Shown: positions 1 through 16,653, counted from the stretch's first letter. The stretch is DNA of 64,000 nt from Oscillospiraceae bacterium (GCA_017619715.1 JAFZRS010000008.1:14934-78933), one strand, 5' to 3'. The notes: generated from the letters alone by a model not told the origin. Program-made: numbers and translations.

Positions 1-331
1 CATATCTTTTGTATGTGGCGGAAATCGCCGGCGCTGAAAAGAACAGCGCCGCATATACCAGCAGCGAGATCACCAATCCGGCGTAGAACATGGATGAAAA
101 ATCCAACTCATCCGAGTTCTTTTTCTGCACAAGTGATGCTCCCAGACCGTTCACAGCCAGCACATTGGCAATATTGATAAAAATAGTCACAAAAGCGATG
201 ATGCCGTATTCAGTTGGAGACAAGCGTCTCGCCAATACGATGGAGACGACCAGGCTGATCATCTGGGCAAGAAACCTCTCGGAAAAATGCCAGAAAAGCC
301 CCCCTATCGTCTTTTCCTTCATGTTATCCAT
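1..331 (-). CDS. wzx: Wzx-type polysaccharide flippase (5' part only; gene runs off the window edge)
   Basis: Manual translation from ATG at 331: MDNMKEKTIGGLFWHFSERFLAQMISLVVSIVLARRLSPTEYGIIAFVTIF...GLGASLVQKK, the typical N-terminus of MOP-superfamily flippases. It is absent from the ORF track because it is truncated. Confidence 0.8.
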   Translation of the reverse strand, partial: MDNMKEKTIGGLFWHFSERFLAQMISLVVSIVLARRLSPTEYGIIAFVTIFINIANVLAVNGLGASLVQKKNSDELDFSSMFYAGLVISLLVYAALFFSAPAISATYKRY

Positions 332-350
332 GTCGCTTAACTAATCCTCG

Positions 351-1490
351 TCAACGTACTCCGCCTTTACCGGTGAGCTCCTCAATGCGCTGTGCGATGA
401 TCTCGCCGGCATGCCCTTCATCAAAAGAGCCATAGGCGCCCATAAACTCTTCCACAGCCTCCTGCTTCCTCCCTATGCCTGAAAAAACCACCTCGTTCAG
501 TGTATCCTCTGTTTCCGCAAGAGGGAACGGCAAACGGTAGAAAATAGGCTTCAAACCACGCGCAGCATCATATTGCGCTATATCCGAAGCATACAGAATA
601 ACAGGCTTTCCCAAAATGGCAAAATCGAAGATCGATGTGGAATAATCCGTCACCAACAGATCTGCCGCCAACAAAAGCTCCTGCATATCGGGATAATGGG
701 AGGCATTGATGATCTGCGGTGAATACGTAATTTCCGCCGCCCACTTTTCAATGTTGGGATGCAGACGTATCAACAGCACCGCGTCACGGTTCACTGCGGC
801 AGCGCAACTTTTGCGAAATCGCTCAAAGTCAATCATAAAGGGACGAATGTCGTTGTTATCACGAAACGTGGGTGCGTACAGCACTAAGTATTTCTCCGAA
901 GCTACACCCAAAGTCTCTCGAATCTGCTGCCGGAAAGCGGCGTCGTCTTTGTGCCGGATCAGCACGTCGTTCCGGGGATAACCGCACTCCAGGATCTCAC
1001 CCCCGTACCAGAAGCAGCGGCGGAATTCTTCCGTCTGAAAGGCACTGTTGGAAATGAGGAGATCCGTTATGGCGCCATCGCGTTTGGCATCTGCCACGTA
1101 ATGCGCGGGCAGTTTATCCTGTGCATCCATCTCAATCTTTTTCAGTGAAAAGGATGCATGCCACGTCTGAATATAGAATTGTGACGGCTTTTTCCTGATC
1201 CCCTTGTCAATACGCGCGTTGTCCACCCACACGCGGGCAGTGGCAAGCTCCCAGTAGCTTCGCAGCGACCGATATTTGACCGGGGTAACACCTGGCGGAA
1301 ATGATCCTGCAGGGTCGTCCGTCAACCAGATCAGACGCAGACCGACACGGCGCTCCAACAAAGTCTGGCAGATATACTTGGGGTTATCTCCGTATCCCTT
1401 GCCGGCAAAGTTCAAAAACACCACTTTGTCCCGCCGCACGTGAAGAAACGACAGAGTATACCGCACGGCGGATTTTACATACTGCAGCAT
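351..1490 (-). CDS. CDP-glycerol/ribitol phosphotransferase, TagF/TagB family
   Basis: Motifs YGDNPK, QTWHA, YAPTFR, RLHP and TDYST; GAGGT RBS upstream. Confidence 0.85.
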   Translation of the reverse strand: MLQYVKSAVRYTLSFLHVRRDKVVFLNFAGKGYGDNPKYICQTLLERRVGLRLIWLTDDPAGSFPPGVTPVKYRSLRSYWELATARVWVDNARIDKGIRKKPSQFYIQTWHASFSLKKIEMDAQDKLPAHYVADAKRDGAITDLLISNSAFQTEEFRRCFWYGGEILECGYPRNDVLIRHKDDAAFRQQIRETLGVASEKYLVLYAPTFRDNNDIRPFMIDFERFRKSCAAAVNRDAVLLIRLHPNIEKWAAEITYSPQIINASHYPDMQELLLAADLLVTDYSTSIFDFAILGKPVILYASDIAQYDAARGLKPIFYRLPFPLAETEDTLNEVVFSGIGRKQEAVEEFMGAYGSFDEGHAGEIIAQRIEELTGKGGVR

Positions 1491-1527
1491 ACCTCATTCA
1501 CCCCGTCTTTCTCTTTCACTTCCACCC

Positions 1528-2532
1528 TCACCCTGCGCCAATGTGCTTGCGCAGCAATGTACAAAAAGACATGCAGCCGCGCCGCAGCAGTACATAATAA
1601 GCGCGGTGGGCGACGCCTCTGCGGCGCATATACGCACGTAGGCAGATCCGGCTCTCCTCTGTATGCAGCAGCTCGGCGCAAATCTGCCGTTTCTCACCGG
1701 CACCGAGCTGCAGCCGCAACAGCTTATTCGTCTCCTCAAAGATCATGTTCCCTATAAACACCCGGATATCCTCTCGGTCTACGCTCTTGACATCAGCAAT
1801 ATGCAGCAGCGTACGGTAGAGCTCCAGAATGTTTTGGATCTGGCCGCGTTTATACGTATTGACAATAGAGGTCTTGTTGTGCATGTAGTGGTAGAAGGGC
1901 GTCTCATGCAAAACCGCCACGCACCGACAATCCGGCAGAACCGCCACGTTGGTATTCACGTCTTCCCCCAGAGATATCTTTGTGTTCAAAAGAGGCAGTG
2001 CATTTATCAGCAGCTCCCGTCTGTACAGCTTATCCCACCGACAGTAGGAAATGGGGTTATCCTCCAAAAGAAAAGCATTGAGATACAGACCTGTCAGCTT
2101 TCTGATCTCCTCCTCGCCCGCATAGACCGTATCGTGAGAGCGAGGCAGGACTTGATCGCCTTCGTCGCTTTCATAGACATAACGACCCACCACCATGTCG
2201 GCCTGCCGGCGGCAGATGTTTTCATATAATACCTCAAAAAAATCCGGATCGACCCAGTCGTCACTGTCCACAAACCCGATATACGGCGCACTCGCCCGTT
2301 TCACGCCCTCGATCCACGCCGACATCAGCCCGCCGTTCTCCTTATGAACAACAACGATCCGCGGATCACTTTCCATAAACCGCCGGCACCGTTCCATGGA
2401 GCCGTCTTTCGTACCGTCGTTGACCAGAATGATCTCTATATCCCGCAGCGTCTGTCCTGTCACCGATGCCAGACACCGCTCCACATATTCTTCCACATTA
2501 TAAATGGGTATCACGACAGAAATTTTACTCAT
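1528..2532 (-). CDS. Family 2 glycosyltransferase
   Basis: MSKISVVIPIYNVE...NDGTKD...GFVDSDD; start moved to ATG 2532, which overlaps the upstream stop (ATGA). Confidence 0.85.
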   Translation of the reverse strand: MSKISVVIPIYNVEEYVERCLASVTGQTLRDIEIILVNDGTKDGSMERCRRFMESDPRIVVVHKENGGLMSAWIEGVKRASAPYIGFVDSDDWVDPDFFEVLYENICRRQADMVVGRYVYESDEGDQVLPRSHDTVYAGEEEIRKLTGLYLNAFLLEDNPISYCRWDKLYRRELLINALPLLNTKISLGEDVNTNVAVLPDCRCVAVLHETPFYHYMHNKTSIVNTYKRGQIQNILELYRTLLHIADVKSVDREDIRVFIGNMIFEETNKLLRLQLGAGEKRQICAELLHTEESRICLRAYMRRRGVAHRAYYVLLRRGCMSFCTLLRKHIGAG

Positions 2533-3470
2533 AAGCGCTCCTCCTGCCCACATCTGCGCCCGGTCCGGCACAACAGCAGCATGCGCTTGATCCGGGCGCG
2601 CAGCGTCAGATACCGCAAATCGTCGATCAGTGCGCACACCGCCTTGCCGTCTATATCCACTTCGTCGGTTTTCATAGCTTCATAGGCAAGCTCCACAATC
2701 GTAGATTCCACCGGGCGAAGTCCTGACGGAGCTTCTTCCTTCAATCGGCATGCGATGGTCCATACGCTTTGATAATGCCGTTTGTCCAGAGAGTGCATAA
2801 TGGAATTGCGGCGCATACGGTAACGGTAGAACACAGAGGGATAGACCCGTACCGTCTCCGCCGCCAGATACACCTGAAAAGAAAAAAGCGTGTCCTCATG
2901 CAGCAGTCCCGGGCAAAACCGAACGCTGTACTCTTGGAGAAATGCTCTGCGGTAAAGCTGTGTACAAACCTCCACATCTATTTCATCTGTAAAGGGGTCA
3001 AACGCGCGGCACATATATTCTGTCCCGCTGACGGCATCTCTCCCCGCCAGGCGGCGCTTGCCCCGGCTGACGGCGTGCGCTTGGATCTCACCCTCCACGT
3101 CTTTGGCATACTGGGCAACCGCCACGTCCGCACCGTCTGCCCACGCGCTGCGCCAGAAGGCGTCAAGCTCTTCGGCGATCACATAGTCATCACTGTCCAG
3201 AAACAGGACGTATTCCCCTTGTGCCAGATCCAGCCCTGTATTGCGGGCGGCAGACAGTCCCTGATTCGGCTGCTCTGTGGCAACGATCAAGTCGGGATAC
3301 CGGTGCGCATATTCACGGACGATCTCTCCGCTGCGGTCGGTAGAACCGTCGTTGACCAACACCACCTCATAGCTGTCAATCGGTAGCTCGACCACCGAAT
3401 GCAGGCACTGGGGCAGATATTTTTCCACGTTATACACCGGAATGATGATGCTGAGCTTTTTGCCGTTCAC
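2529..3470 (-). CDS. Family 2 glycosyltransferase
   Basis: KKLSIIIPVYNVE...NDGSTD...ARNTGL...FLDSDD; GTG start at 3470 overlaps the upstream stop (GTGA). Confidence 0.85.
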   Translation of the reverse strand: MNGKKLSIIIPVYNVEKYLPQCLHSVVELPIDSYEVVLVNDGSTDRSGEIVREYAHRYPDLIVATEQPNQGLSAARNTGLDLAQGEYVLFLDSDDYVIAEELDAFWRSAWADGADVAVAQYAKDVEGEIQAHAVSRGKRRLAGRDAVSGTEYMCRAFDPFTDEIDVEVCTQLYRRAFLQEYSVRFCPGLLHEDTLFSFQVYLAAETVRVYPSVFYRYRMRRNSIMHSLDKRHYQSVWTIACRLKEEAPSGLRPVESTIVELAYEAMKTDEVDIDGKAVCALIDDLRYLTLRARIKRMLLLCRTGRRCGQEERL

Positions 3471-4435
3471 GCCTTGCTCCTTCTCATATACCACTCGTGC
3501 AGCCTTGCATACGCCCGGTTCAATCCCCACAGGCGATGTGCCGCCAAAAAATAGTAGATCCTTTTTTTCAGGTCTGCGTCCTGCAAATAACGGTTGCACC
3601 GCCACCGGGGATACGCTTTTTCAAAGGCGTCAATCTGTTCCCTCACCTCATACTGCGGCATCCCTGCCTTAAAGGCGTTGAGCGTAAAGCCGTAAATCAC
3701 GTTTTTGATCCCGTTATACTCAAGCTCCGCCTGCATGGATGAATCTACTTCCTTTTCCTGAAAACGGAATGCGTCAATAAAGCTGAAACACTCTTCCCGG
3801 GAAACTCCCTGGGACAGTGAATCACCGTGCACCAAATAATAGTAAAGGGCCTCGTCCACATAGGAAAAGGTCTTGGCGCGGGAGATCACCACCGGCACGA
3901 TTGCCAAATCCTCTCCGTGGTAAATATCAGGTATTTGCAGTCCGTGGAACAACTGGCGGTGAACCGCCAGATTGCACAATGAACCGTCGTTCACTGCTGC
4001 GAGATACGACACGGAGTTTACTTTATCCCGGTCTATTCTGGTATAAGGCGCGGTATGTCCGTCCGGCGTGGTGAGGGCAATGCGACATATCGCCAAATCC
4101 TTCCCGCCCGATAATGCGTTTGCCATTTTTTCCAGAAAAGTATCGGCATACCAGTCGTCGCAATCGCAAAAGCAGAGGTACTCCCCCTTCGCCGCAGCGA
4201 TCCCGCGGTTGCGGGCAGCACCCGGTCCCGCATTCTCTTCCTGCGCGATAATCTGTACGGAGAAAGGCGCCTGCTCCCGAAAGGTCTCCAGTTTTTTCAA
4301 GGTGCCGTCAATCGAGCAGTCGTCCACGAAGACAGCCTCCAGATCCCGGCAGGTCTGCCCTACAAGGGCACTCAGACAGTGATTCAGCTTATGCTCAGCA
4401 TTATAACACGGTACGATCACACTGAATTTCGGCAT
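3467..4435 (-). CDS. Family 2 glycosyltransferase
   Basis: MPKFSVIVPCYNAE...DDCSID...ARNRGI...FCDCDD. Confidence 0.85.
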   Translation of the reverse strand: MPKFSVIVPCYNAEHKLNHCLSALVGQTCRDLEAVFVDDCSIDGTLKKLETFREQAPFSVQIIAQEENAGPGAARNRGIAAAKGEYLCFCDCDDWYADTFLEKMANALSGGKDLAICRIALTTPDGHTAPYTRIDRDKVNSVSYLAAVNDGSLCNLAVHRQLFHGLQIPDIYHGEDLAIVPVVISRAKTFSYVDEALYYYLVHGDSLSQGVSREECFSFIDAFRFQEKEVDSSMQAELEYNGIKNVIYGFTLNAFKAGMPQYEVREQIDAFEKAYPRWRCNRYLQDADLKKRIYYFLAAHRLWGLNRAYARLHEWYMRRSKA

Positions 4436-4445
4436 TCCCTATCCC

Positions 4446-5435
4446 TCATTTTTTTAATTGGAACAGCCCTACCAGCGTCCCCGCGCCATAGCTGAGGTGT
4501 ATCAGCAAGAAAAGAACCGGCAGCAACAGATACAGGATATTCCGACCGGGATCGGCTGTCAGTGCGATTCCCGCGGTAACCGCGGCAAAGAGCGCATAGA
4601 GACCCCACAGCAATGCTCCAAGCTGCCAGATACCCAAACCTGCCAGAACGCCAGTAAACAAAATGCCCAGAACAAACAGCGCCGGCACCAGATAGAACCA
4701 CGATACGGATCCCGGTGTGACGAACAATGTTCTGGCAATCCAGTAGCCATTTTGATATTTCTGACGCAGCATACTCCTGAGTGTGTTGCGGGTGTGCTGA
4801 TAGGAGATAATATCCGGGTGAAACCAGATGACAAAACCAGCCCGGCGGATCCGGTAGTGCATATCGTTGTCCTCCGTACGGCGGAGGGACTCGTTATACC
4901 GCCCCACCCGGTCAAAAACCTCCCGGCGATATGCGCCGTGGAAAACGGAATCCACTTGCCGGTCCGTGCCGTTTCTGCGGAAATCGGCTATGCTGCTGCC
5001 GAAAACGGAGCTTTCCGCTGCCAAAAGGGTACTCTTCCACGGTGTGTCCTCATCTATGATATTGGGACGGTAACCGCCGCAGACGTCCTCGCCTGCCTCC
5101 AGATGCGCCACATTTCTTTCCAGAAAATCCGGCGGCATCTCAGCGTGCGCGTCCACACGCACCACAGCATCGCCGGAGTAATGCTCCAATACCACGTTCC
5201 AGCCGCACGGAAGCGTCCGTCCCGGGTTGTCCAACACCAGAATCTTCTCAAATTCGGCGCCGCAGCGCCTTTGGAAATCAAAAAAAAGATCTTTGGTTCC
5301 GTCTGTAGACAGCCCGTCCACCAGAATAACCTCTATATCCCGATGGGGATACGTCTGCTCACGCAAATTCTCCAGCAGACGCCCAATCGTTTTTTCCTCA
5401 TTGAATGCTACGACGCAAAATGTGATCCGCATCAT
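4446..5435 (-). CDS. Family 2 glycosyltransferase with C-terminal membrane helices (ExoA-like)
   Basis: VVAFNEE, DGLSTDGT, RVDAH and RTEDND motifs with a hydrophobic C-terminus; ATGA overlap with the upstream gene. Confidence 0.85.
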   Translation of the reverse strand: MMRITFCVVAFNEEKTIGRLLENLREQTYPHRDIEVILVDGLSTDGTKDLFFDFQRRCGAEFEKILVLDNPGRTLPCGWNVVLEHYSGDAVVRVDAHAEMPPDFLERNVAHLEAGEDVCGGYRPNIIDEDTPWKSTLLAAESSVFGSSIADFRRNGTDRQVDSVFHGAYRREVFDRVGRYNESLRRTEDNDMHYRIRRAGFVIWFHPDIISYQHTRNTLRSMLRQKYQNGYWIARTLFVTPGSVSWFYLVPALFVLGILFTGVLAGLGIWQLGALLWGLYALFAAVTAGIALTADPGRNILYLLLPVLFLLIHLSYGAGTLVGLFQLKK

Positions 5436-6139
5436 CGCTCCTCCGCACGATCCGTCCTCTCCAGTATGGCGCACACCGTTTTCCACATAACGCGCAAGTC
5501 TGCCCCGCAGGAAAAATCCCGCAGCGCTGCAAGGTTATATTGCATCTTCTGCGGCAGGACTTCCTCTATATACACCCGATCCGCGTCCTGGGCACCGTGC
5601 AGCAACTCCGCCTCATCTTTATAGAGGATGGACGCCTGTGACGTAATACCCGCCGGGAGAAGCAGTGTCGCGTACATCTCCGGGGTGTAATGCTCAACGT
5701 ATTTCGGCACTTCAGGACGCGTTCCCACCAGTGTCATACTGCCTGCCAGCACGTCGAGCAGTTGTCCCAGCTCGTCCAGACGGCACGCACGGATCAAACG
5801 CCCCACCCGGGTCACACGGGAGTCGTGATCTACCGTCACCTGCGTACCCAAACGGTCCGCCCCGTCTATCATGGAGCGAAACTTATGAATGCGGAACAGC
5901 CGCCCGTACTGCGTTACCCGCGTCTGGCGGTAGAAAACAGGTCCTTTGGAATCCAGCCGGATCGCCAGCGCCAAAAGGAGAAACAACGGCGAGAACAAAA
6001 GCAGCAGGAACAGCGACATAACCACATCAAATATTCGCTTGATCAGCAGCATGCGACGCCTGCTCCACAGCACGTCGTAATACTCTCTGCACGCCGCCGT
6101 CCGCATCAGGTCGGGCAGCTCCTCCCAACGCTTCAGCAT
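5432..6139 (-). CDS. Initiating undecaprenyl-phosphate sugar-1-phosphate transferase (small Bac_transf type)
   Basis: KRIFD, KFRSM, RLDELGQL and VGTRPE motifs; one N-terminal TM helix. Confidence 0.9.
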   Translation of the reverse strand: MLKRWEELPDLMRTAACREYYDVLWSRRRMLLIKRIFDVVMSLFLLLLFSPLFLLLALAIRLDSKGPVFYRQTRVTQYGRLFRIHKFRSMIDGADRLGTQVTVDHDSRVTRVGRLIRACRLDELGQLLDVLAGSMTLVGTRPEVPKYVEHYTPEMYATLLLPAGITSQASILYKDEAELLHGAQDADRVYIEEVLPQKMQYNLAALRDFSCGADLRVMWKTVCAILERTDRAEER

Positions 6140-7362
6140 TCAATCACCTGCGCCAGTACAGCGCGATAGGACTCAATCACATAGTCCACCTGCTCATCTG
6201 TCAGGCAGGTGTGAATGGGGAGCGTAATCTCGTTGGCAAAAAAGGCATACGCATGGGGATAATCGGCTATGTCAAAGCCCAGGTTCTTATAGGCGGTGTG
6301 CATGGGCAGCGGCTTATAATGCACATTGCAGATAACGCCGCGTTCCGCCATTTTTATGATGATATCGTTGCGCTGCTCCGGTGTGATACCCGGTACCCGC
6401 GTGATATAGAGATGACCGGAGGAGGCATAGTCGTCCGTATAGTGGGGCATGACCTCCACGCCAAGAGCCCGGAAGGCATCATCATACCGGCCGATAATCT
6501 CCCGGCGCCGCTCCAACAAGGCGGGATACCGCTCCAGTTGGGCAAGACCGATGGCGGCGGCAATATCAGTCATGTTGCACTTGTACCAAGTGCCCATAAT
6601 ATCATATTCCCACGCACCCAGCTTCGTTTTTGCCAGCGCATCTTTATTTTGTCCATGCAGACTGAAAAGCTGCAGCTTCCGGTAGATCTCCTCATCATCC
6701 ACACCGGCGATGGGACGCCAAGTAACGGCACCGCCTTCAGCCGTGGTAAAATTCTTCACGGCGTGAAAGCTGAAATTGGTGAAATCCGCCTTTGCGCCGA
6801 TCCTTTTCCCATGCCACACGGTTCCAAACGCGTGCGCCGCGTCCTCTACGATCGCCACACGACCGATGGCGCGCTGCAGTGCGCCGTTGGGAGAAAACAG
6901 CGCCTTCTTACGCTCTAAAATGGCCAGAAGCCTGTCATAATCGCACGGCAAGCCACCCAAATCCACCGGAATGATCGCCTTCGTGCGCTCTGTAATGGCA
7001 CGCTCCAACGCATCATAATCCATCAGGGGGCTGTCCTTCTGGCAGTCCACCAGCACAATCTCGGCACCTACATGTCGAATGACCGACGCACTGGCAGTGT
7101 ATGTATACGCACAGGTAATTACCTCATCGCCCGGTCCGATCTCCAAAAGGCGTAATACCATCTCGGCGCAGGCCGTCTGGGAATTGAGGCAGACGCACCC
7201 GGGAACGTCCAGCCAGTCGGCTATCTTCTGCTCCAGCTCCTTGGTGCGCGGCCCCGTGGTGATCCAACCGGAGCGCAGTGCCTCCGTTACATATGCAATC
7301 TCCTTTTCAGAAATATCAGGCGGTGAAAAGGGAATATTCATTTTGGCCGGTTGTTCGCTCAT
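6133..7362 (-). CDS. DegT/DnrJ/EryC1/StrS PLP-dependent nucleotide-sugar aminotransferase
   Basis: NIPFSPPDI, GWITTGP, EDAAHA and SFHAVKNFTTAEGG (PLP lysine); GGAGG RBS before ATG 7362. Confidence 0.92.
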   Translation of the reverse strand: MSEQPAKMNIPFSPPDISEKEIAYVTEALRSGWITTGPRTKELEQKIADWLDVPGCVCLNSQTACAEMVLRLLEIGPGDEVITCAYTYTASASVIRHVGAEIVLVDCQKDSPLMDYDALERAITERTKAIIPVDLGGLPCDYDRLLAILERKKALFSPNGALQRAIGRVAIVEDAAHAFGTVWHGKRIGAKADFTNFSFHAVKNFTTAEGGAVTWRPIAGVDDEEIYRKLQLFSLHGQNKDALAKTKLGAWEYDIMGTWYKCNMTDIAAAIGLAQLERYPALLERRREIIGRYDDAFRALGVEVMPHYTDDYASSGHLYITRVPGITPEQRNDIIIKMAERGVICNVHYKPLPMHTAYKNLGFDIADYPHAYAFFANEITLPIHTCLTDEQVDYVIESYRAVLAQVIEC

Positions 7363-7501: not shown

Positions 7502-7530
7502 ATTATACCACAAACCCCAATATATAGCAA
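7502..7530 (-). promoter_or_regulatory. SigA-type promoter of the polysaccharide operon
   Basis: TTGCTA-17 nt-TATAAT with extended -10 TG on the minus strand. Confidence 0.65.
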
Positions 7531-7613: not shown

Positions 7614-7642
7614 TTGTCAAGCCGATGGTCTTGGTGTATAAT
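7614..7642 (+). promoter_or_regulatory. SigA-type promoter of galE-hom
   Basis: TTGTCA-17 nt-TATAAT. Confidence 0.7.
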
Positions 7643-7708: not shown

Positions 7709-8722
7709 ATGAAAAAAAACATTCTGTTACCCGGCGGCGCCGGCTTTATCGGTTCCCACGTGGCGGCGGAGCTTTTGACGCGCGGTTACGACGTGGTCAT
7801 CGTAGATGACCTGTCCAATGCCCGGGCGGACGTGATCGACCGGCTGGAACGTATTACCGGCGTACGTCCCGCGTTCTACCGGATCGATGCGGCGGACAAA
7901 CCTGCGCTGGAGCAGGTGTTTGCCGAGAACGCCATCGACGCGGTGATCCATTTTGCCGGATACAAGGCGGTGGGTGAGTCGGTGGCGAAACCGGTATCCT
8001 ACTACCGCAACAACCTGGATACCACACTTACGCTGTTGGAAACCATGTCCGACCACGGCGTCAAGGAACTGATTTTCAGTTCCTCCGCCACGGTATACGG
8101 TGTGGACAACCCCGCCCCCTACACCGAGGATATGCCCCGGGGCGGCTGCACCAACCCCTACGGCTGGACAAAGGCGATGATCGAGCAGATCCTGCAGGAT
8201 GCCTGCGTGGCTGATCCTGCGCTGCGGGTGGTGTGTCTTCGCTACTTCAATCCCGTGGGCGCCCATGAGAGCGGTCTGATCGGGGAGATGCCCAACGGCA
8301 TTCCCAATAACCTCATGCCCTATATCACCCAGACCGCCGCCGGGATCCGCAAGGAGCTGTCGGTATTCGGCAACGACTATCCTACGCCGGACGGCACCGG
8401 TGTGCGGGATTTTATCCACGTGGTGGATCTGGCGAAGGGGCACGTGGCGGCGCTCTCCTACGCGGACGCTCACCCGGGCTGGGAAGCCATTAACCTTGGC
8501 ACCGGCTGCGGCACCAGCGTTTTGGAGCTGGTGGGGACGTTCGCCTCTGTCAATGACATCTCCGTTCCCTATCGCATTGCACCGCGGCGCAGCGGCGATC
8601 TGGCGGTGTGTTACGCCGCCACGGACAAGGCGCGCCGCCTTCTGGGCTGGCAGGCGGAAAAGACCGTTGCCGATATGTGCCGCGACTCCTGGCGCTGGCA
8701 GCAAAGCAGCGCCAAACTGTGA
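7709..8722 (+). CDS. galE: UDP-glucose 4-epimerase
   Basis: GGAGFIG, HFAGYKAVGES, SSSATVYG, YGWTK and LRYFNPVGAH; start set at MKKNILL (7709). Confidence 0.95.
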   Translation: MKKNILLPGGAGFIGSHVAAELLTRGYDVVIVDDLSNARADVIDRLERITGVRPAFYRIDAADKPALEQVFAENAIDAVIHFAGYKAVGESVAKPVSYYRNNLDTTLTLLETMSDHGVKELIFSSSATVYGVDNPAPYTEDMPRGGCTNPYGWTKAMIEQILQDACVADPALRVVCLRYFNPVGAHESGLIGEMPNGIPNNLMPYITQTAAGIRKELSVFGNDYPTPDGTGVRDFIHVVDLAKGHVAALSYADAHPGWEAINLGTGCGTSVLELVGTFASVNDISVPYRIAPRRSGDLAVCYAATDKARRLLGWQAEKTVADMCRDSWRWQQSSAKL

Positions 8723-8747
8723 TAATATCTTTCAGGAGGTATATATA

Positions 8748-9887
8748 ATGAACATTGCCCTTCTCGGTTTCGGTGTGGTGGGCGGCGGCGTGTATGAGCT
8801 GTGCCGTAAGCGCACCGACCTGTCCCTCAGGCGCGTATTGGTACGCAGTGATAAGCCGGAGATTGCGTCCATTGCCACACGCAGCTTTGACGATATTCTC
8901 TCCGACCCCTCCATCGACACGGTGGTGGAGGTCATGGGCGGTATTCACCCGGCAAAAGAATATGTCTGCGCGGCGCTCAACGCCGGCAAGCACGTGGTCA
9001 CTGCCAACAAAGCGCTGATCGCCGCCTGTTACGACGAGCTGATTGCGCTGGCGCGGAAAAACGGCGTGGCACTGCGCTGTACGGCGGCGGTGGGCGGCGG
9101 TATTCCGTGGCTTATCAATCTCGAACGCGTCAAGCGGCTGGACAGCCTCTCCCAGGTGGGCGGCATCATGAACGGCACCACCAACTTCATCATGGACGCC
9201 ATGCACGCCGCACCCGTTTCCTTTGCCGATATCCTCAAGAAGGCGCAGGAGTTGGGCTACGCCGAGGCGGATCCCAGCGCCGACATTGACGGCGACGATA
9301 TTCGCCGCAAGCTGGCAATCTCCGCCAATATTGCCTTTGACACGGCGCTCAGCGAAACGGAGATCCCCACCTTCGGTATCCGAACCGTTACCGACGGCGA
9401 TATTGCCTCCTTCCAACGCCGCGGCTTTGTCTGCAAGCTGATCGCCACCGCACTGCGCTGCGAAGACGGCGTATGCGCGTTCGTAGAGCCTACTTTGGTA
9501 TCGCGGCAGGAGCCGGAAGCCGCCGTACCCGCCAACTACAATCTCATCACCTATACCGCCGACGCCATCGGGCGTCAGAGCTTCTTCGGACAAGGCGCCG
9601 GACGTTTCCCCACCGCCGCAAACGTGGTGCAGGACTGTTTGGACGTTCTCGGCGGCAAAACCGCCTTCTATTCCGTGCCCTCTGCGGCGGCGAAGCTGTG
9701 CGCCGACGCGGTGGCGCATCCCTACTACGTCCGCACCGCAGTGATGGATCCGTGGCTCACCTCTATCACGGCGGATCACTGGGAAGGCGGTGTGATCACC
9801 TCTGCCGTGCCGGTGGGACAGATGCTGCGCTGGGCAAAGGAGCGTCTTGCCGCAGATCCCACCTGCTTCATTGCCGGTATCCGGTAA
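8748..9887 (+). CDS. hom: Homoserine dehydrogenase
   Basis: GFGVVGGG, VVTANKA, AVGGGIP, NGTTNFI and GYAEADPSADIDG; AGGAGG RBS. Confidence 0.93.
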   Translation: MNIALLGFGVVGGGVYELCRKRTDLSLRRVLVRSDKPEIASIATRSFDDILSDPSIDTVVEVMGGIHPAKEYVCAALNAGKHVVTANKALIAACYDELIALARKNGVALRCTAAVGGGIPWLINLERVKRLDSLSQVGGIMNGTTNFIMDAMHAAPVSFADILKKAQELGYAEADPSADIDGDDIRRKLAISANIAFDTALSETEIPTFGIRTVTDGDIASFQRRGFVCKLIATALRCEDGVCAFVEPTLVSRQEPEAAVPANYNLITYTADAIGRQSFFGQGAGRFPTAANVVQDCLDVLGGKTAFYSVPSAAAKLCADAVAHPYYVRTAVMDPWLTSITADHWEGGVITSAVPVGQMLRWAKERLAADPTCFIAGIR

Positions 9888-9900
9888 TCTCTCACACACG

Positions 9901-10605
9901 ATGGACAAGCCCTCTCTGACACAACAGCAAAAAAGGCGGATCGCCATCGGCGCTGTGATCTTTTTCGTACTGTTCAGCGCCGCGGTATTATGGTTTGTCG
10001 GACGCCCCATGATCCGCTTTGCCCAACAGCCGGAACTGTTCCGCGCCTGGGTGGACGAACGCGGCATATGGGGCAGGGTCGCCTATGTGGGCATGGTTTT
10101 CCTGCAGGTGCTGGTGGCGCTGATCCCCGGTGAGCCGCTGGAGATCTGCGGCGGCTACGCCTTCGGCGCCTTCTGTGGTACGGCGCTGTGCCTGCTGGGT
10201 GCGGCGCTGGGCAGCATTGCCGTCTTTGCCGCTGTGCGGCGGTTCGGTACGGCGCTGGTCGAGGCGTTTTTCTCCCGGGAAAAGCTGGATTCGCTCCGCT
10301 TTCTCCACAGTTCGCCCAAACGTGACGTCCTCTTCTGGCTGATTTTCACCGTGCCGGGTACGCCCAAGGATCTTTTATGCTATTTCGCCGGACTGACCGA
10401 TCTGAGCTGGGGAAAGTGGCTGCTGATCTGCACGGCGGGACGCCTCCCCTCCATCGTGACCTCCACAGTGGGCGGTGACGCGCTGGGCGTGCAGAACTAC
10501 ATATTCGCCATTGTCACCTTTGCCGTCACGCTGGCGGTCTCGGGTCTGGGACTGCTCATTTACCGTGCCGTCTGCCGAAAACACGGCAAGAACCAAAGAA
10601 CATAA
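9901..10605 (+). CDS. TVP38/TMEM64 (VTT, DedA-superfamily) membrane protein
   Basis: Hydrophobic; QVLVALIPGEP, GGYAFG and PGTPKDLLCYFAGLT...GRLPSI pattern. Confidence 0.8.
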   Translation: MDKPSLTQQQKRRIAIGAVIFFVLFSAAVLWFVGRPMIRFAQQPELFRAWVDERGIWGRVAYVGMVFLQVLVALIPGEPLEICGGYAFGAFCGTALCLLGAALGSIAVFAAVRRFGTALVEAFFSREKLDSLRFLHSSPKRDVLFWLIFTVPGTPKDLLCYFAGLTDLSWGKWLLICTAGRLPSIVTSTVGGDALGVQNYIFAIVTFAVTLAVSGLGLLIYRAVCRKHGKNQRT

Positions 10606-13790: not shown

Positions 13791-13822
13791 AGGCGTATAT
13801 GTCCGTGATCGGAGGCGACGAT

Positions 13823-14518
13823 ATGAAAAAGATCGTGCACAAATCGGCGATCCCCCTCTACGCCGCGGCGGTGGTATGGATTCTGTACGCGGTGTTGTTC
13901 CCATTGTATAAGCCGGGCCATTTCCTATTGGCGGCGATTGCGGCGGCAGTAGTGGGACTGATCGCCCGGGCGCTGTGCAAGGACGTGGTGGAGGAAGTCC
14001 CGGAGACCACCGGCAATGAGGAACTGGATCAAATGACGGCGGAGGGACGCCGTGCCATCGAGGAGATGAAGGCGCTGGACGAGCGCATTGCCGATGAGAA
14101 GATCAGCGCCGCTATCGTGCGTTTGCAGCAGGTGACAGAGCAGATCTTCCGGGAGGTGAAGTCGGAGCCGAAAAAGCTGCCCCAGATCCGCAAGTTTATG
14201 AGCTATTATCTGCCCACCACCCTCAAGCTGCTGCGCGCCTACGACAGCGCCTGCGCACAGGGTGTATCCGGTGAGAACATCGACGCCGCCAAAAAAGGCG
14301 TGGCGGGGATTATGGATCGGATTGTTGCCGCTTTTGAAAAGCAGTTGGACAGTCTCTTCGGCGATCAGGCGTTGGATATTTCCACCGATGTCACCGTACT
14401 GGAGAATATGATGGTACGGGAGGGCTTCAGTGCCGATTCCCTGCACCAAACGGTGCAGACGAACACCTCCTCTTCCGACACCGAAGAAGGCGAGGGCGGC
14501 ATTACGCTGGAATTGTAA
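13823..14518 (+). CDS. xpaC: XpaC-family (5-bromo-4-chloroindolyl phosphate hydrolysis) membrane protein
   Basis: Two N-terminal TM helices; RKFMSYYLPTTLKLL..Y and LDISTDVTVLE motifs; directly upstream of telA. Confidence 0.75.
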   Translation: MKKIVHKSAIPLYAAAVVWILYAVLFPLYKPGHFLLAAIAAAVVGLIARALCKDVVEEVPETTGNEELDQMTAEGRRAIEEMKALDERIADEKISAAIVRLQQVTEQIFREVKSEPKKLPQIRKFMSYYLPTTLKLLRAYDSACAQGVSGENIDAAKKGVAGIMDRIVAAFEKQLDSLFGDQALDISTDVTVLENMMVREGFSADSLHQTVQTNTSSSDTEEGEGGITLEL

Positions 14519-14577
14519 ATCGCTGACAAGCACAAATGCTTTACAGTATAACGCTATCAAAGAAAGGAACGATTGAC

Positions 14578-15738
14578 ATGAGTGAAAACATGACCCCTGA
14601 GCTGACACTGGAACCCTCCGCCACCGCCGTCCAACTCCCCGAGCTGACATTGGACGGCGCCGCGCCGGCAGCACCGCAGACGGAGACGAAGCCGGTGGAG
14701 CCGGTGCAGATGGACGAGAGCCTGCTCTCCGATGAAGAAAAGCGCGCGGTGGAGGAGTTCTCTCACAAGATTGACATCCGCGACACCAACCAGATTCTCC
14801 AGTACGGCGCCGCCGCGCAAAAGAGTGTTGCCAGCTTTTCCGAAAGTGCTCTGAGCAGCGTCCGCAACAAGGATTTGGGAGAGATCGGCGGAGATCTGAG
14901 CCGTCTGGTGGTGGAGCTGAAAGGCTTTGGCGAAACGGAAAAAAAGGGTCTGGCGGGTCTATTCAAAAAAGCGGGCAACAAGCTGGAAACCATGAAGGCA
15001 CAGTACAGCAAGGTCGAGGCAAATGTGGACAAGATCGCACAAAATCTGGAAAATCACCAGATTACGCTGCTCAAAGACGTCGCCATGTTCGACCAGATGT
15101 ATGAGCTGAACCTCAAATACTATAAGGAACTGACCATGTATATTCTCGCCGGCAAGAAGCGCTTGGAAGAAGTGCGCGCCGGTGAGCTGGAGGAGCTGCG
15201 CAAGAAGGCGGAGCAGACGGGGCTTGCCGAGGACGCCCAGGCGTACAATGACTATGTCAATCTCTGCAACCGTTTTGAAAAGAAACTTCACGACCTGGAG
15301 CTGACGCGGATCGTGTCCATTCAGATGGGACCCCAGACCCGTCTGCTGCAGAACAACGACACGCTGATGATCGAGAAGATCCAGTCCTCGCTGGTCAATA
15401 CCATTCCGCTGTGGAAGAGCCAGATGGTGCTGGCGCTGGGCATGGAACACGCCGCGCAGGCAACCGCCGCCCAAAACGCCGTGACGGAGATGACCAACGA
15501 ACTGCTTAAGAAGAACGCCGACAAGCTGAAAATGGGTACGATTGCCACCGCCAAGGAGGCGGAGCGCTCCATCGTGGATATTGAGACGCTGCAGCATACC
15601 AATCAGCAGTTGATCTCCACGCTGGACGAGGTACTGCAGATCCAGCGTCAAGGCGCCGAGAAGCGCAAGGCAGCCGAGGCGGAGCTGGGACGCATTGAGG
15701 GTGAGCTGAAGCAAAAGCTGATGGAGCTGCGTGGCTGA
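14578..15738 (+). CDS. telA: Toxic anion resistance protein, TelA/YaaN family
   Basis: QYGAAAQ, KKLHDLELTR..SIQMGPQTRL and IPLWKSQMVLAL; coiled-coil. Confidence 0.9.
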   Translation: MSENMTPELTLEPSATAVQLPELTLDGAAPAAPQTETKPVEPVQMDESLLSDEEKRAVEEFSHKIDIRDTNQILQYGAAAQKSVASFSESALSSVRNKDLGEIGGDLSRLVVELKGFGETEKKGLAGLFKKAGNKLETMKAQYSKVEANVDKIAQNLENHQITLLKDVAMFDQMYELNLKYYKELTMYILAGKKRLEEVRAGELEELRKKAEQTGLAEDAQAYNDYVNLCNRFEKKLHDLELTRIVSIQMGPQTRLLQNNDTLMIEKIQSSLVNTIPLWKSQMVLALGMEHAAQATAAQNAVTEMTNELLKKNADKLKMGTIATAKEAERSIVDIETLQHTNQQLISTLDEVLQIQRQGAEKRKAAEAELGRIEGELKQKLMELRG

Positions 15739-15774
15739 TTTCTCACAGCAGATACTCCTTGAAAGGAGCCGGAC

Positions 15775-16653
15775 ATGAACAAATTATCTTATAACCGCAC
15801 ACTGGCATGGATCTTGCTGGTGGCGGCGGTGGCTGGTGCGTGCCTGATCGGTCAGTTGCGCAAAGCCTCATTTGAGGCAAAAAAGCCCACCGAACTGTTG
15901 GACGTGCGCTATCATCAGTGGATCGAAGACAGCACGGGTATGCTTTCAGATGCCACCATTGAAACAGTATCTAAATATAATGCCGCGTGGGACAATAGCT
16001 ATCATGCCACCATTGCCATAGCAACAATTCCCACCCTGAACGGTTGGCAAGACGGCATGGATTACGGTAAGACATTGGGCGAAAAGTGGGGACTCAGTAG
16101 CCGTGATATGCTTTTGCTGCTGGTCAAAGATGGGTACTGGTACGCAATTCTGGGCAACGATGTACAAGATACCGTTCAGCAGAACAAGCAGGAAGAAAAG
16201 TTGGAATCGGCGATGAGCAACCCTTACTATAAGGGTAACTATGATGAAGCTGTGATCGCTTTTTTCCGACAGGCGGACATATACTACGCGCAGGCGTCGC
16301 AGTACTTTTACTCCTCAGTGTCCCCGGGATTAGGTGAATATCACTCGCCTAATGAATCCGGCATTTCTCTATTTGGTGTGCTGTTGCTGATCGTAGGCAT
16401 CTTTATCGTTTGGGCGCTGCTGGATCGCGTGCGCTACAACCGCTATCGCCGCCGCACGGTGGTGGTGGGTGCGCCCCGGGTGACGTATTATCCCATCTTC
16501 TGGGGACGTCACGCCGCGCCGCCGCGCCACGCACCGCCGCCTCCCGGCGGCTACCGTCCGCCTCACCCCACTCCTCCCGGACCGCCCCGCAGCAGCGGAT
16601 CGTACCGCGGCGGAAACACCGGCCGCGGAGGCTTCGGCGGAAAGAAAAGATAG
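15775..16653 (+). CDS. TPM-domain membrane protein with Pro/Gly/Arg-rich tail
   Basis: N-terminal anchor, IEDSTGMLS / IAIATI / KWGL..RDMLLLLV pattern, second TM helix, then PPPPGGYRPP...RGGFGG tail. Confidence 0.7.
   Translation: MNKLSYNRTLAWILLVAAVAGACLIGQLRKASFEAKKPTELLDVRYHQWIEDSTGMLSDATIETVSKYNAAWDNSYHATIAIATIPTLNGWQDGMDYGKTLGEKWGLSSRDMLLLLVKDGYWYAILGNDVQDTVQQNKQEEKLESAMSNPYYKGNYDEAVIAFFRQADIYYAQASQYFYSSVSPGLGEYHSPNESGISLFGVLLLIVGIFIVWALLDRVRYNRYRRRTVVVGAPRVTYYPIFWGRHAAPPRHAPPPPGGYRPPHPTPPGPPRSSGSYRGGNTGRGGFGGKKR

Follow-up and report, generated by a model that had tools for sequence, protein, structure and literature searches.

The left end of the window (the whole 64,000-nucleotide stretch of DNA analysed) covers the first half of an operon of 12 genes and about 14.3 kb (G000:C14:7993-22295, minus strand). 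From its sequence the locus is predicted to direct synthesis of an AATGal-type surface polysaccharide, pairing a pneumococcus-like amino-sugar starter with a phosphonate decoration pathway. The source is an uncultured member of the Clostridia from gut or rumen, the assembly of which is 1.32 Mb in size and 98% complete. The best overall explanation, which we hold to be moderately probable, is a Wzx/Wzy repeat-unit glycan with an AATGal start and a CMP-2-hydroxyethylphosphonate (CMP-HEP) cassette, resembling pneumococcal (type IV) teichoic acid and the AATGal zwitterionic capsules. The operon enlarges known kinds of system and is not a new kind.

Operon structure and the amino-sugar starter

All eight proteins that the initial annotation assigned to a minus-strand operon (DegT aminotransferase, small phosphoglycosyl transferase (PGT), four GT2 glycosyltransferases, a TagF-family protein and the start of Wzx) were found in their places between positions 2 and 7362 (Table 1). 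The translational coupling described for these genes was also evident, as the DegT and PGT genes overlap by 7 nt, PGT and GT2a as well as GT2c and GT2d share ATGA, and GT2b and GT2c share GTGA; the other intergenic gaps are 10–37 nt. The peptide starts quoted for the aminotransferase (MNIPFSPPDI) and the transferase (MLKRWEELPDLM) were likewise present. E-values for PF00535 ranged from 5e-24 to 4e-36 across the four GT2 genes, and GT2a, a homologue of which (47% identity) follows PGT in another genome (G012), is likely the enzyme that adds the second sugar. No Rfam family matched the operon leader.

The operon extends about 7 kb beyond base 1 of the window, through the remainder of Wzx and genes for a fusion of LicC-like and Fom1-like cytidylyltransferase domains with PEP mutase, an iron alcohol dehydrogenase (Fe-ADH), phosphonopyruvate decarboxylase (Ppd) and Wzy. 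Beyond Wzy comes LicD in convergent orientation, split by one frameshift; its two halves match residues 2-131 and 158-280 of a LicD of 280 aa. These genes occupy a 16.6-kb island of lower G+C, bounded by a fatty-acid-CoA ligase gene and by galE, which shares 80% identity with its counterpart beside capD-degT-PGT in a genome of the same genus (G020). No chain-length regulator was found in the island; fragments of Wzz occur at two contig ends (C31 and C32).

Table 1. Features of the operon and its borders. Positions are those of the window unless a contig (C14) is named.
Feature	Position	Strand	Evidence or remark
DegT sugar 4-aminotransferase, Spr1654-like, presumed UDP-AATGal synthase, first operon gene	6133..7362	-	PF01041, E 2e-92
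Small monotopic polyprenyl-phosphate PGT, initiating	5432..6139	-	PF02397 (Bac_transf), E 6e-52
GT2 glycosyltransferase a	4446..5435	-	PF00535, PF13632; ATGA overlap with PGT stop; GGAGG ribosome-binding site
GT2 glycosyltransferase b	3467..4435	-	PF00535, E 6.5e-33
GT2 glycosyltransferase c, start revised to GTG 3470	2529..3470	-	PF00535, E 1.3e-35; GTGA overlap with GT2b stop
GT2 glycosyltransferase d, start revised to ATG 2532	1528..2532	-	PF00535, E 4.3e-36; ATGA overlap with GT2c stop
Short TagF/TarF-family phospho-alcohol transferase, catalytic domain only	351..1490	-	PF04464 (Glyphos_transf), E 7e-76
Wzx flippase, N-terminal 110 aa	2..331	-	PF13440, E 1.8e-21
Full Wzx, 485 aa	G000:C14:13807-15264	-	PF13440, E 8.9e-86
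Promoter-like site TTGCTA-17-TGnTATAAT upstream of DegT, leader ~140 nt	7502..7530	-	sequence
Divergent galE (UDP-glucose 4-epimerase), right island border, not a dehydratase	7709..8722	+	TIGR01179, 417 bits vs cut-off 262
galE promoter-like site	7614-7642		
Bidirectional terminator, 20-bp stem	C14:7941-7988		
LicD, split by one frameshift	C14:7096-7948	+	

An initiating PGT, glycosyltransferases, Wzx and Wzy (Wzy_C, E 3.5e-18) were all present within this one locus, which holds the only such set of PGT, Wzx and Wzy in the genome; two LCP genes are encoded elsewhere. As to the initial assignment to a teichoic-acid/capsule locus, the pathway is of the Wzx/Wzy repeat-unit kind and not a classical wall teichoic acid of the TagF type. 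A classical TagF/TarL wall teichoic acid was rejected on the lack of tagD, the single short Glyphos_transf protein, export by Wzx and the presence of Wzy. TagGH ABC-transporter genes were not found in the island.

The AATGal-type aminotransferase was identified as an orthologue-level relative of pneumococcal Spr1654, in line with the likeness noted initially. DegT aligned with Spr1654 (PDB 6EWJ; PMC5936713) over 401 aa without gaps (547 bits, E 1.9e-163, approximately 63% identity) and kept the PLP-lysine motif HAVKNF and both Spr1654-specific insertions, the next-best PDB matches being ArnB (at most 227 bits), perosamine synthases (approximately 150) and PseC (136). A grouping of DegT with PglE or perosamine enzymes was discarded on these scores, and the AATGal reading of the gene is well supported by sequence comparison. 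Homologues with 53–69% identity occurred in seven relatives, where the small PGT gene adjoins that of DegT in six and lies 2.4 kb away in the seventh. By comparison with PDB structures, the PGT was equally far from PglC and from the WbaP catalytic domain, and its sugar specificity is not readable from sequence. In a genome-wide search with the NeuD and PglD families, no PglD/NeuD-type N-acetyltransferase reached the cut-off (best score 54 bits versus 161, on another contig).

Phosphonate cassette and proposed pathway

The view that the anionic partner of the amine is a phosphodiester made by the TagF-family protein stood only in part: a phosphonate is likely to be included too, from the cassette past base 1, and phosphodiester alone was not upheld. 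PEP mutase scored 405 bits against TIGR02320 (cut-off 320) and carries the EDK-x5-NS motif as EDKTGLKKNS, while Ppd scored 459 bits against TIGR03297 (cut-off 313). The middle domain of the fusion, which carries HSGH, matched the Fom1 cytidylyltransferase domain (5X3D) with 141 bits versus 34 bits for TagD; the N-terminal domain is LicC/PntC-like, with the GxGxR motif as GLGRR and a weak likeness to PntC (27 bits to 6PD1). The fusion is thus predicted to supply a phosphonate cytidylyltransferase. The Fe-ADH that adjoins the cassette fell below every curated NCBIfam cut-off (e.g., 141 bits versus 424 for TIGR03405), and the assignment of HEP therefore rests on analogy with Fom1/Fom2/FomC. The branch-point enzyme would be an Fe-ADH of the PhpC/FomC type for HEP and a PhnW-type transaminase for AEP; HEP is favoured over AEP because no PhnW transaminase was found in the genome. 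A phosphonoglycan locus is predicted, with HEP as the most likely phosphonate.

The cassette of fusion, decarboxylase and Fe-ADH is common in rumen and gut metagenomes. Among 80 metagenome loci in which the fusion was 73–80% identical, Ppd was present in 73 and Fe-ADH in 70, the remainder being mostly cut contigs. The usual neighbour of the cassette is LicD (LicD only in 33 of the 80 loci) and only sometimes a TagF-like gene (TagF-like only in 7, both in 1). No separate tagD- or LicC-like nucleotidyltransferase gene was found in TagF-bearing cassette loci by the query used; two of these TagF-bearing loci (L164 and L194) carry an IspD/TarI-type gene. LicD was near 12, and a TagF-like gene near 2, of 26 PEP-mutase loci at class level. 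The activation of phosphonates by nucleotidyl transfer on the way to surface glycans has been described, fused Ppm enzymes included, both domains occurring in 2.9% of Ppm enzymes (PMC6697681), and the HEP branch accounts for 8.5% of ppm neighbourhoods (PMC8942020).

The identities of the genes, the layout of the operon, the conservation of the cassette, the partner counts and the absences from this assembly were observed, whereas each substrate and the final structure are inferred. In the proposed pathway, DegT would aminate UDP-4-keto-6-deoxy-GlcNAc to UDP-AATGal and the PGT would load AATGal-1-P onto undecaprenyl phosphate, after which the four GT2 enzymes would extend the repeat unit, with UDP-Gal from galE. 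PEP mutase would convert PEP to phosphonopyruvate, Ppd would form phosphonoacetaldehyde and Fe-ADH would form HEP, which the Fom1-like and/or LicC-like domains fused to the mutase would convert to CMP-HEP. The phosphonyl group would then be moved to a sugar hydroxyl, a step that published proposals give to LicD-like enzymes and for which LicD, frameshifted here, is the usual partner elsewhere and the TagF-like enzyme the only intact candidate. Wzx would flip the unit, Wzy would polymerise it and one of the two LCP proteins would attach the polymer to the wall. A zwitterionic product, with the free AATGal amine and a phosphonate or phosphodiester, is plausible.

Missing genes and alternative readings

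Of the genes that the pathway needs, three are absent from the assembly or present there in broken form. The lack of a 4,6-dehydratase gene from the window, noted initially, was correct and extends to the whole 1.32 Mb. Models for UDP-GlcNAc 4,6-dehydratase of the CapD/PglF/UngD2 kind (PF02719 and PF16363) matched galE only in this 98%-complete, visibly cut assembly, a tblastn search of the assembly with the CapD of a relative gave no match, no other NDP-sugar dehydratase was found, and no capD lies between galE and degT, the site where G020 of the same genus has it. In contrast, capD was present in all seven relatives that carry a DegT homologue, on a different contig from degT in three; its counterpart in B. 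fragilis is not part of the PSA operon (PMC13063421). True absence of capD is unproven because the assembly is incomplete: contigs C31 and C32 both terminate in the same Wzz gene, a cut within another cps-type locus. At 1.32 Mb, the assembly is below all other sampled genomes of the genus (1.4–2.6 Mb).

The TagF-like gene is the sole Glyphos_transf gene in the genome. Its product scored 179 bits against TagF (3L7I), the catalytic histidines of which (H444 and H584) align to H111 and H243, and is short like TarF and TagB, with 174 bits to the TarF model, far under the equivalog cut-off of 550. Candidate donors on sequence grounds are CDP-glycerol and CMP-HEP, no source of CDP-glycerol being visible in the assembly. 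To our knowledge, the TagF family is known only for CDP-polyol phosphotransfer. We give not quite an even chance to the reading, a refined form of the initial model, that the enzyme acts as a conventional phosphotransferase for CDP-glycerol (or another CDP-polyol) and adds a glycerol-phosphate side group, that phosphonate, if attached, is transferred by LicD, and that tagD and capD lie in DNA missing from the assembly. This reading is favoured by the conserved histidines, by a tree that placed the enzyme among tagD-linked glycerophosphotransferases and far from cassette-linked TagF clades, and by its 80 nearest homologues (34–43% identity), 29 of which lie no more than 10 kb from a tagD-like gene, in many cases right beside it, whereas 1 is near a PEP mutase; the cut in the other cps-type locus and the small assembly also agree with it. 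However, no tagD was found in the assembly, where PF01467 of the teichoic type occurs solely as the Fom1-like domain of the PEP mutase fusion, and the one IspD-family gene sits on a different contig. Moreover, a broken LicD would leave a conserved cassette without a transferase, and five of the 80 metagenome loci have a TagF-family gene directly abutting the cassette, without LicD, exactly at the usual place of LicD. These five loci speak instead for a tentative and rather unlikely reading, namely that phosphonyl transfer at this locus is the work of the TagF-like enzyme, which would use CMP-HEP as an isostere of a CDP-alcohol, release CMP as TagF does and replace the broken LicD. Also consistent with this role, the enzyme is the only intact candidate for a CMP-releasing transferase in the island, one gene from the cassette, and no other donor pathway was seen in the assembly; the literature searched held no paper linking TagF enzymes to phosphonates, and the phosphonyl transferase step has been termed enigmatic (PMC6697681). 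Phylogeny and neighbourhoods of the closest relatives nonetheless indicate CDP-glycerol, PEP mutase genes overall seldom have a TagF-like neighbour, and the frameshift in LicD could stem from faulty assembly, in which case no substitute is needed. More doubtful still is the fuller claim that a TagF-family enzyme so transferring a C-P group yields a zwitterionic wall glycan with AATGal amine and HEP phosphonate. If it were true, units might be linked by the TagF-like enzyme via phosphonate esters, because transferred HEP keeps a free hydroxyl, and the polymer would then be the phosphonate counterpart of a teichoic acid. The distinct TagF clades that abut the cassette in metagenome loci L166, L193, L201 and L208 would make stronger test cases for such phosphonyl transfer.

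Decay or incompleteness of the locus, such that no UDP-AATGal and hence no PGT donor is made without capD, no phosphonate is attached with LicD frameshifted, and no full glycan results, appears improbable. The lack of capD, also at the syntenic galE site, in the face of its presence in all seven relatives with DegT, the frameshift in LicD and the smallest genome of those sampled in the genus would fit such decay, but twelve genes running in one direction are intact, translationally coupled and served by a good promoter and terminator, and both the placement of capD away from degT elsewhere and the visible cut in the assembly argue against it. Least credible, and very improbable, is that DegT makes another amino sugar, or stands in for the absent PhnW by aminating phosphonoacetaldehyde to AEP. 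No keto-sugar source was found in the assembly and Spr1654 activity on UDP-4-keto-6-deoxy-GlcNAc is without in vitro demonstration (PMC5936713); against this, DegT aligned with Spr1654 without gaps at approximately 63% identity, its 53–69% identical homologues sit with capD and PGT, the regions retrieved containing no phosphonate genes, and the cassette has its own branch enzyme, Fe-ADH, in 70 of 80 loci. Points noted against the favoured explanation, the repeat-unit glycan with an AATGal start and a CMP-HEP cassette, were the absent capD, the frameshifted LicD, the sub-cut-off Fe-ADH, the position of the TagF-like enzyme outside cassette-linked clades and the occurrence of its homologues near PEP mutase in 1 of 80 cases versus 29 near tagD-like genes, with TagF-like genes at 2 and LicD at 12 of the 26 PEP-mutase loci.

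Comparison with known systems

The teichoic acid pathway of S. pneumoniae comprises Spr1654, an adjacent PGT, the CapD-like Spr0092, the TacF flippase, a Wzy-type polymerase and LicC/LicD phosphocholine decoration. The present locus resembles it in the Spr1654-like aminotransferase followed by a small PGT, in the repeat-unit logic of Wzx and a Wzy-type polymerase, in a LicC-like nucleotidyltransferase and a LicD gene for a small phospho-substituent, and in LCP ligases in the genome. It differs in having a phosphonate cassette (PEP mutase, Ppd and Fe-ADH) and no choline genes, no CDP-ribitol genes in the locus, no CapD homologue in the assembly and a frameshifted LicD.

As in AATGal zwitterionic capsules (B. 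fragilis PSA with WcfR/WcfS; S. pneumoniae Sp1), an aminotransferase and PGT pair heads a Wzx/Wzy operon, and as in PSA (PMC13063421) the 4,6-dehydratase is not in the operon; no amine-capping acetyltransferase of the PglD/NeuD type was found here. In contrast with these capsules, the negative charge would be that of a phosphonate or phosphodiester rather than of pyruvate or uronic acid. The TagF-like enzyme shares the Glyphos_transf fold, both catalytic histidines and the short form with TagF/TarF/TagB CDP-glycerol glycerophosphotransferases, whereas it lies in a Wzx/Wzy operon with no TagGH in the island and no tagD in the assembly and scores 174 bits versus 550.

The fusion of a motif-bearing PEP mutase to a Fom1-like cytidylyltransferase and a LicC/PntC-like domain is comparable to Fom1/Fom2/FomC of fosfomycin biosynthesis and to PntC-Ppm fusions (PMC6697681), where the three-domain form present here was counted (the 2.9% given above) and is uncharacterised. 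Unlike fosfomycin biosynthesis, the setting is one of glycan assembly, with no downstream fosfomycin enzymes. The adjacent Ppd and Fe-ADH, and LicD as the commonest neighbour of the cassette, are in keeping with phosphonyl tailoring (Pnt) and HEP pathways, for which an HEP exopolysaccharide of Stackebrandtia is cited in PMC8942020.

Gene content of the glycan island and its predicted AATGal module

All of the genes named in the initial annotation were found on the minus strand by ORF listing and by Pfam and NCBIfam scans, and the translational coupling described there was borne out by inspection of start codons, which indicated that stop and start codons share ATGA or GTGA at three junctions, with an overlap of 7 nt between the genes for the aminotransferase and the small phosphoglycosyl transferase (PGT) and gaps of 10-37 nt elsewhere. 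In the source assembly (G000; 1.32 Mb, 34 contigs, 98% complete), contig C14 extends 14.9 kb to the left of the window, and the operon runs on there. The window itself spans C14 14934-78933, and subtracting 14933 from a C14 position gives its place in the window. Beyond licD, the left border is marked by a fatty-acid-CoA ligase gene followed by asnS, while galE, divergent from the operon, forms the right end of the island, which has a G+C content of 50-55% compared with 57-62% in the flanks. The 140-nt operon leader matched no Rfam family, and a regulatory RNA reading was therefore dropped. Elsewhere in the window, a homoserine dehydrogenase gene (8400-9887, plus strand) lies opposite a 505-aa ATG ORF (8550-10067, minus strand), probably a shadow ORF, for which no family match was obtained. 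Three consecutive genes at 13799-16653 (plus strand), namely an XpaC-like gene (PF10112), the toxic-anion-resistance gene telA and one encoding a TPM domain, bear no relation to the glycan operon.

Features of the glycan island, located in the window or on contig C14 of the source assembly (G000)
Feature	Position	Strand	Remark
DegT aminotransferase	window 6133-7362	-	ORF + Pfam/NCBIfam
Small Bac_transf PGT	window 5432-6139	-	ORF + Pfam/NCBIfam
GT2 glycosyltransferases (n=4)	window	-	ORF + Pfam/NCBIfam
Glyphos_transf (TagF-like)	window 351-1490	-	ORF + Pfam/NCBIfam
Wzx flippase, first 110 residues	window 2-331	-	ORF + Pfam/NCBIfam
Operon promoter-like site	window 7530-7502		good extended -10
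galE promoter-like site	window 7614-7642		divergent from the operon's
Wzx, full length	G000:C14:13807-15264		operon
669-aa fusion	G000:C14:11759-13768		operon; LicC/MobA-like nucleotidyltransferase, cytidylyltransferase-like and PEP mutase domains
Iron-containing alcohol dehydrogenase (Fe-ADH)	G000:C14:10641-11756		operon
Phosphonopyruvate decarboxylase (Ppd)	G000:C14:9533-10651		operon
Wzy_C protein	G000:C14:7993-9507		operon
Bidirectional terminator	G000:C14:7941-7988		20-bp stem, after Wzy_C gene
LicD	G000:C14:7096-7948	+	convergent on operon terminator; own promoter-like site

The proposal of an AATGal-type aminotransferase was upheld by alignment of the DegT protein with pneumococcal Spr1654 (PDB 6EWJ) over 401 residues with zero gaps at 547 bits, as opposed to 136-227 bits for ArnB, perosamine synthases and PseC; identity with Spr1654, counted over one alignment block, was about 63%. 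Spr1654 has two insertions that its authors called unique to it (PMC5936713), and since the alignment is gapless, both are shared by the DegT protein. Homologues with 53-69% identity were noted in seven relatives, each with a PGT gene adjacent or close by, and orthology and gene context in these relatives led us to reject the idea that this DegT protein is the absent 2-aminoethylphosphonate transaminase. A second DegT gene (G000:C10:5657-6868, minus strand), the product of which is 30% identical to the first, adjoins a gene for a BshB1-like PIG-L deacetylase and belongs to a separate amino-sugar pathway rather than to the glycan locus. Capping of the free amine by an N-acetyltransferase had been raised as a possibility; in a search of the genome, no PglD/NeuD-type match reached the cut-off.

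The phosphonate cassette and its neighbors

In the cassette (fusion, Ppd and Fe-ADH), two members passed their equivalog models, with scores of 405 bits for PEP mutase (cut-off 320), which contains the diagnostic motif EDKTGLKKNS, and 459 bits for Ppd (cut-off 313). The middle domain of the fusion scored 141 bits against the cytidylyltransferase domain of Fom1 (PDB 5X3D) versus 34 bits against TagD, and the N-terminal domain scored 40 bits against LicC and 27 bits against a PntC fusion. No PhnW transaminase was detected in the genome. The best inference from these comparisons is that the cassette makes CMP-2-hydroxyethylphosphonate (CMP-HEP) by Fom1/Fom2/FomC logic, in which PEP would be converted successively to phosphonopyruvate, phosphonoacetaldehyde, HEP and CMP-HEP. 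This assignment agrees with published work, in which most of the capacity to make phosphonates is assigned to surface glycans, via cytidylyl activation (PMC6697681), and about 8.5% of ppm neighborhoods encode the HEP branch (PMC8942020).

The three-gene cassette occurs very frequently in metagenomes of the rumen and gut. Searching metagenome contigs with the fusion gave at least 587 relatives, and among the best 80 of these (full-length, 73-80% identical), Ppd was present in 73 loci and Fe-ADH in 70, in each case immediately adjacent to the fusion; loci without one or the other were mostly on cut contigs. Clustering of neighboring ORFs, with clusters named by Pfam, identified LicD as the commonest neighbor (34/80 loci, often in two to five copies), while a TagF-family gene occurred in eight loci (LicD only in 33, TagF only in seven, both in one). 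In five loci (L166, L173, L193, L201 and L208), which contained no LicD, tagD or tarI gene, the TagF gene abuts the cassette at the usual place of LicD. The TagF genes of these loci come from two deep clades, to which the window's enzyme does not belong, and are candidate phosphonyl transferases. Among TagF-bearing metagenome loci, the queries used detected no separate tagD- or LicC-like gene, and an IspD/TarI-type gene was noted in two (L164 and L194).

An even, class-level sample of 399 genomes included 27 with a true PEP mutase, which provided 26 loci besides the source locus; LicD was nearby in 12 of these and a TagF-like gene in two. The LicC-like N-terminal domain goes with Fe-ADH in this sample, the latter being present in 14 of 16 loci with the domain and in none of 10 without it, where only the cytidylyltransferase and PEP mutase domains occur; one of the two domain-bearing loci in which Fe-ADH was not detected is on an 8.3-kb contig. 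Absence of the fusion and cassette from all 24 same-genus genomes sampled, together with the lower G+C content of the island, suggests that the cassette was acquired horizontally. In a genome from another family of the same order (G039:C4:66800-74200; loci L122/L123), capD, Ppd, a 71%-identical triple fusion, a UDP-GlcNAc 2-epimerase gene and an APH/choline-kinase-like gene occur in a row, with no Fe-ADH detected in this stretch.

The TagF-like enzyme, LicD and the missing dehydratase

The TagF-like enzyme is short, consisting of the catalytic domain alone (179 bits to TagF 3L7I), keeps both catalytic histidines (H111 and H243) and is the sole member of its family in the genome. Among species-representative genomes, the 80 homologues nearest to it were just 34-43% identical and came from many phyla; a tagD-like gene was found within 10 kb of 29 of these and a PEP mutase gene near one, from a spirochaete. 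In the tree, the enzyme is placed among these homologues and well away from the TagF clades found directly beside phosphonate cassettes, and the idea of a phosphonate-specialized clade was thus unsupported. From homologue neighborhoods and tree placement, it is most likely a CDP-glycerol-type phosphotransferase. The assembly nevertheless lacks tagD, and the LicD gene is broken. Matches to PF01467 were limited to the fusion and three other genes, which we took for CoaD, NadD and RibF types from frame lengths alone, and LicD is split by a single frameshift near C14 7495-7515, just after the FPLD motif, into reading frames that align with residues 2-131 and 158-280 in a LicD of 280 aa. The best full-length LicD relatives were only 52-57% identical, with none above 57% in a set of 5.8 billion proteins; no intact, near-identical LicD was therefore found, and the frameshift may be real or an assembly error. 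For the donor, CDP-glycerol or a similar compound, supplied through a gene that the assembly lacks, seems to us to have somewhat less than an even chance; CMP-HEP is rather unlikely, and some other donor takes the remainder. How phosphonates are placed on glycans has been termed enigmatic (PMC6697681), and the pairing of the cassette with LicD or, in a minority of loci, with TagF provides concrete candidates for this step.

The 4,6-dehydratase, noted initially as missing from the window, was not found in the assembly either: PF02719 and PF16363 matched only galE, and tblastn with the CapD of a relative gave nothing. A hidden dehydratase function of galE was rejected, its product scoring 417 bits against the GalE equivalog (cut-off 262) and just 87 bits against RmlB, as was a capD remnant upstream of degT, where the gap to galE is merely 346 bp and tblastn was again negative. 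CapD (about 630 aa) is present in 7/7 relatives carrying the aminotransferase. The gene order in a same-genus genome (G020) is galE (divergent), capD, degT and PGT; in the source genome, degT directly follows galE. Absence of capD is nonetheless unproven because capD and degT are on different contigs in 3/7 relatives and the equivalent gene in B. fragilis is not part of the PSA operon (PMC13063421). Two further reasons are that no other genome sampled in the genus is as small as this assembly and that a cps-type locus is interrupted at the ends of contigs C31 and C32. The ends of these contigs (C31, 38751-38942; C32, 4311-4502) are both inside the same Wzz/CpsC N-terminus and share 141 identical nt, or about 200 nt with one difference, and an LCP gene is just upstream of the Wzz end on C32. 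This break weakens every claim that a glycan gene is absent from the genome.

Charge pattern and comparison with known systems

The suggestion of a zwitterionic glycan is plausible but remains conditional, since the assembly has neither capD nor tagD and its licD carries a frameshift. The product, if made, would be a glycan of a Gram-positive gut or rumen commensal with both a free AATGal amine and a phosphonate. B. fragilis PSA and pneumococcal Sp1 owe their immunomodulatory activity to a pattern of free amines and negative charges, and the predicted glycan would have this pattern, built with a degradation-resistant C-P group. Screens for zwitterionic polysaccharides by wcfR-like genes alone call for caution, since the marker pair occurs here in an assembly without the needed dehydratase.

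The claim of a teichoic-acid or capsule locus was partly sustained. Unlike the classical TagF system for wall teichoic acid, the source locus is without tagD, has Wzx and Wzy and, within the island, contains no TagGH-type transporter genes. HEP glycans have been predicted before and isolated once. The triple fusion has also been counted already, at 2.9% of Ppm enzymes (PMC6697681), and each module of the locus is already known; the locus therefore adds to known kinds of system. It resembles those for AATGal-type zwitterionic capsules and would work like that for pneumococcal teichoic acid, with AATGal initiation, Wzx/Wzy assembly and LicC/LicD-type decoration, but with a phosphonate cassette in place of choline genes.
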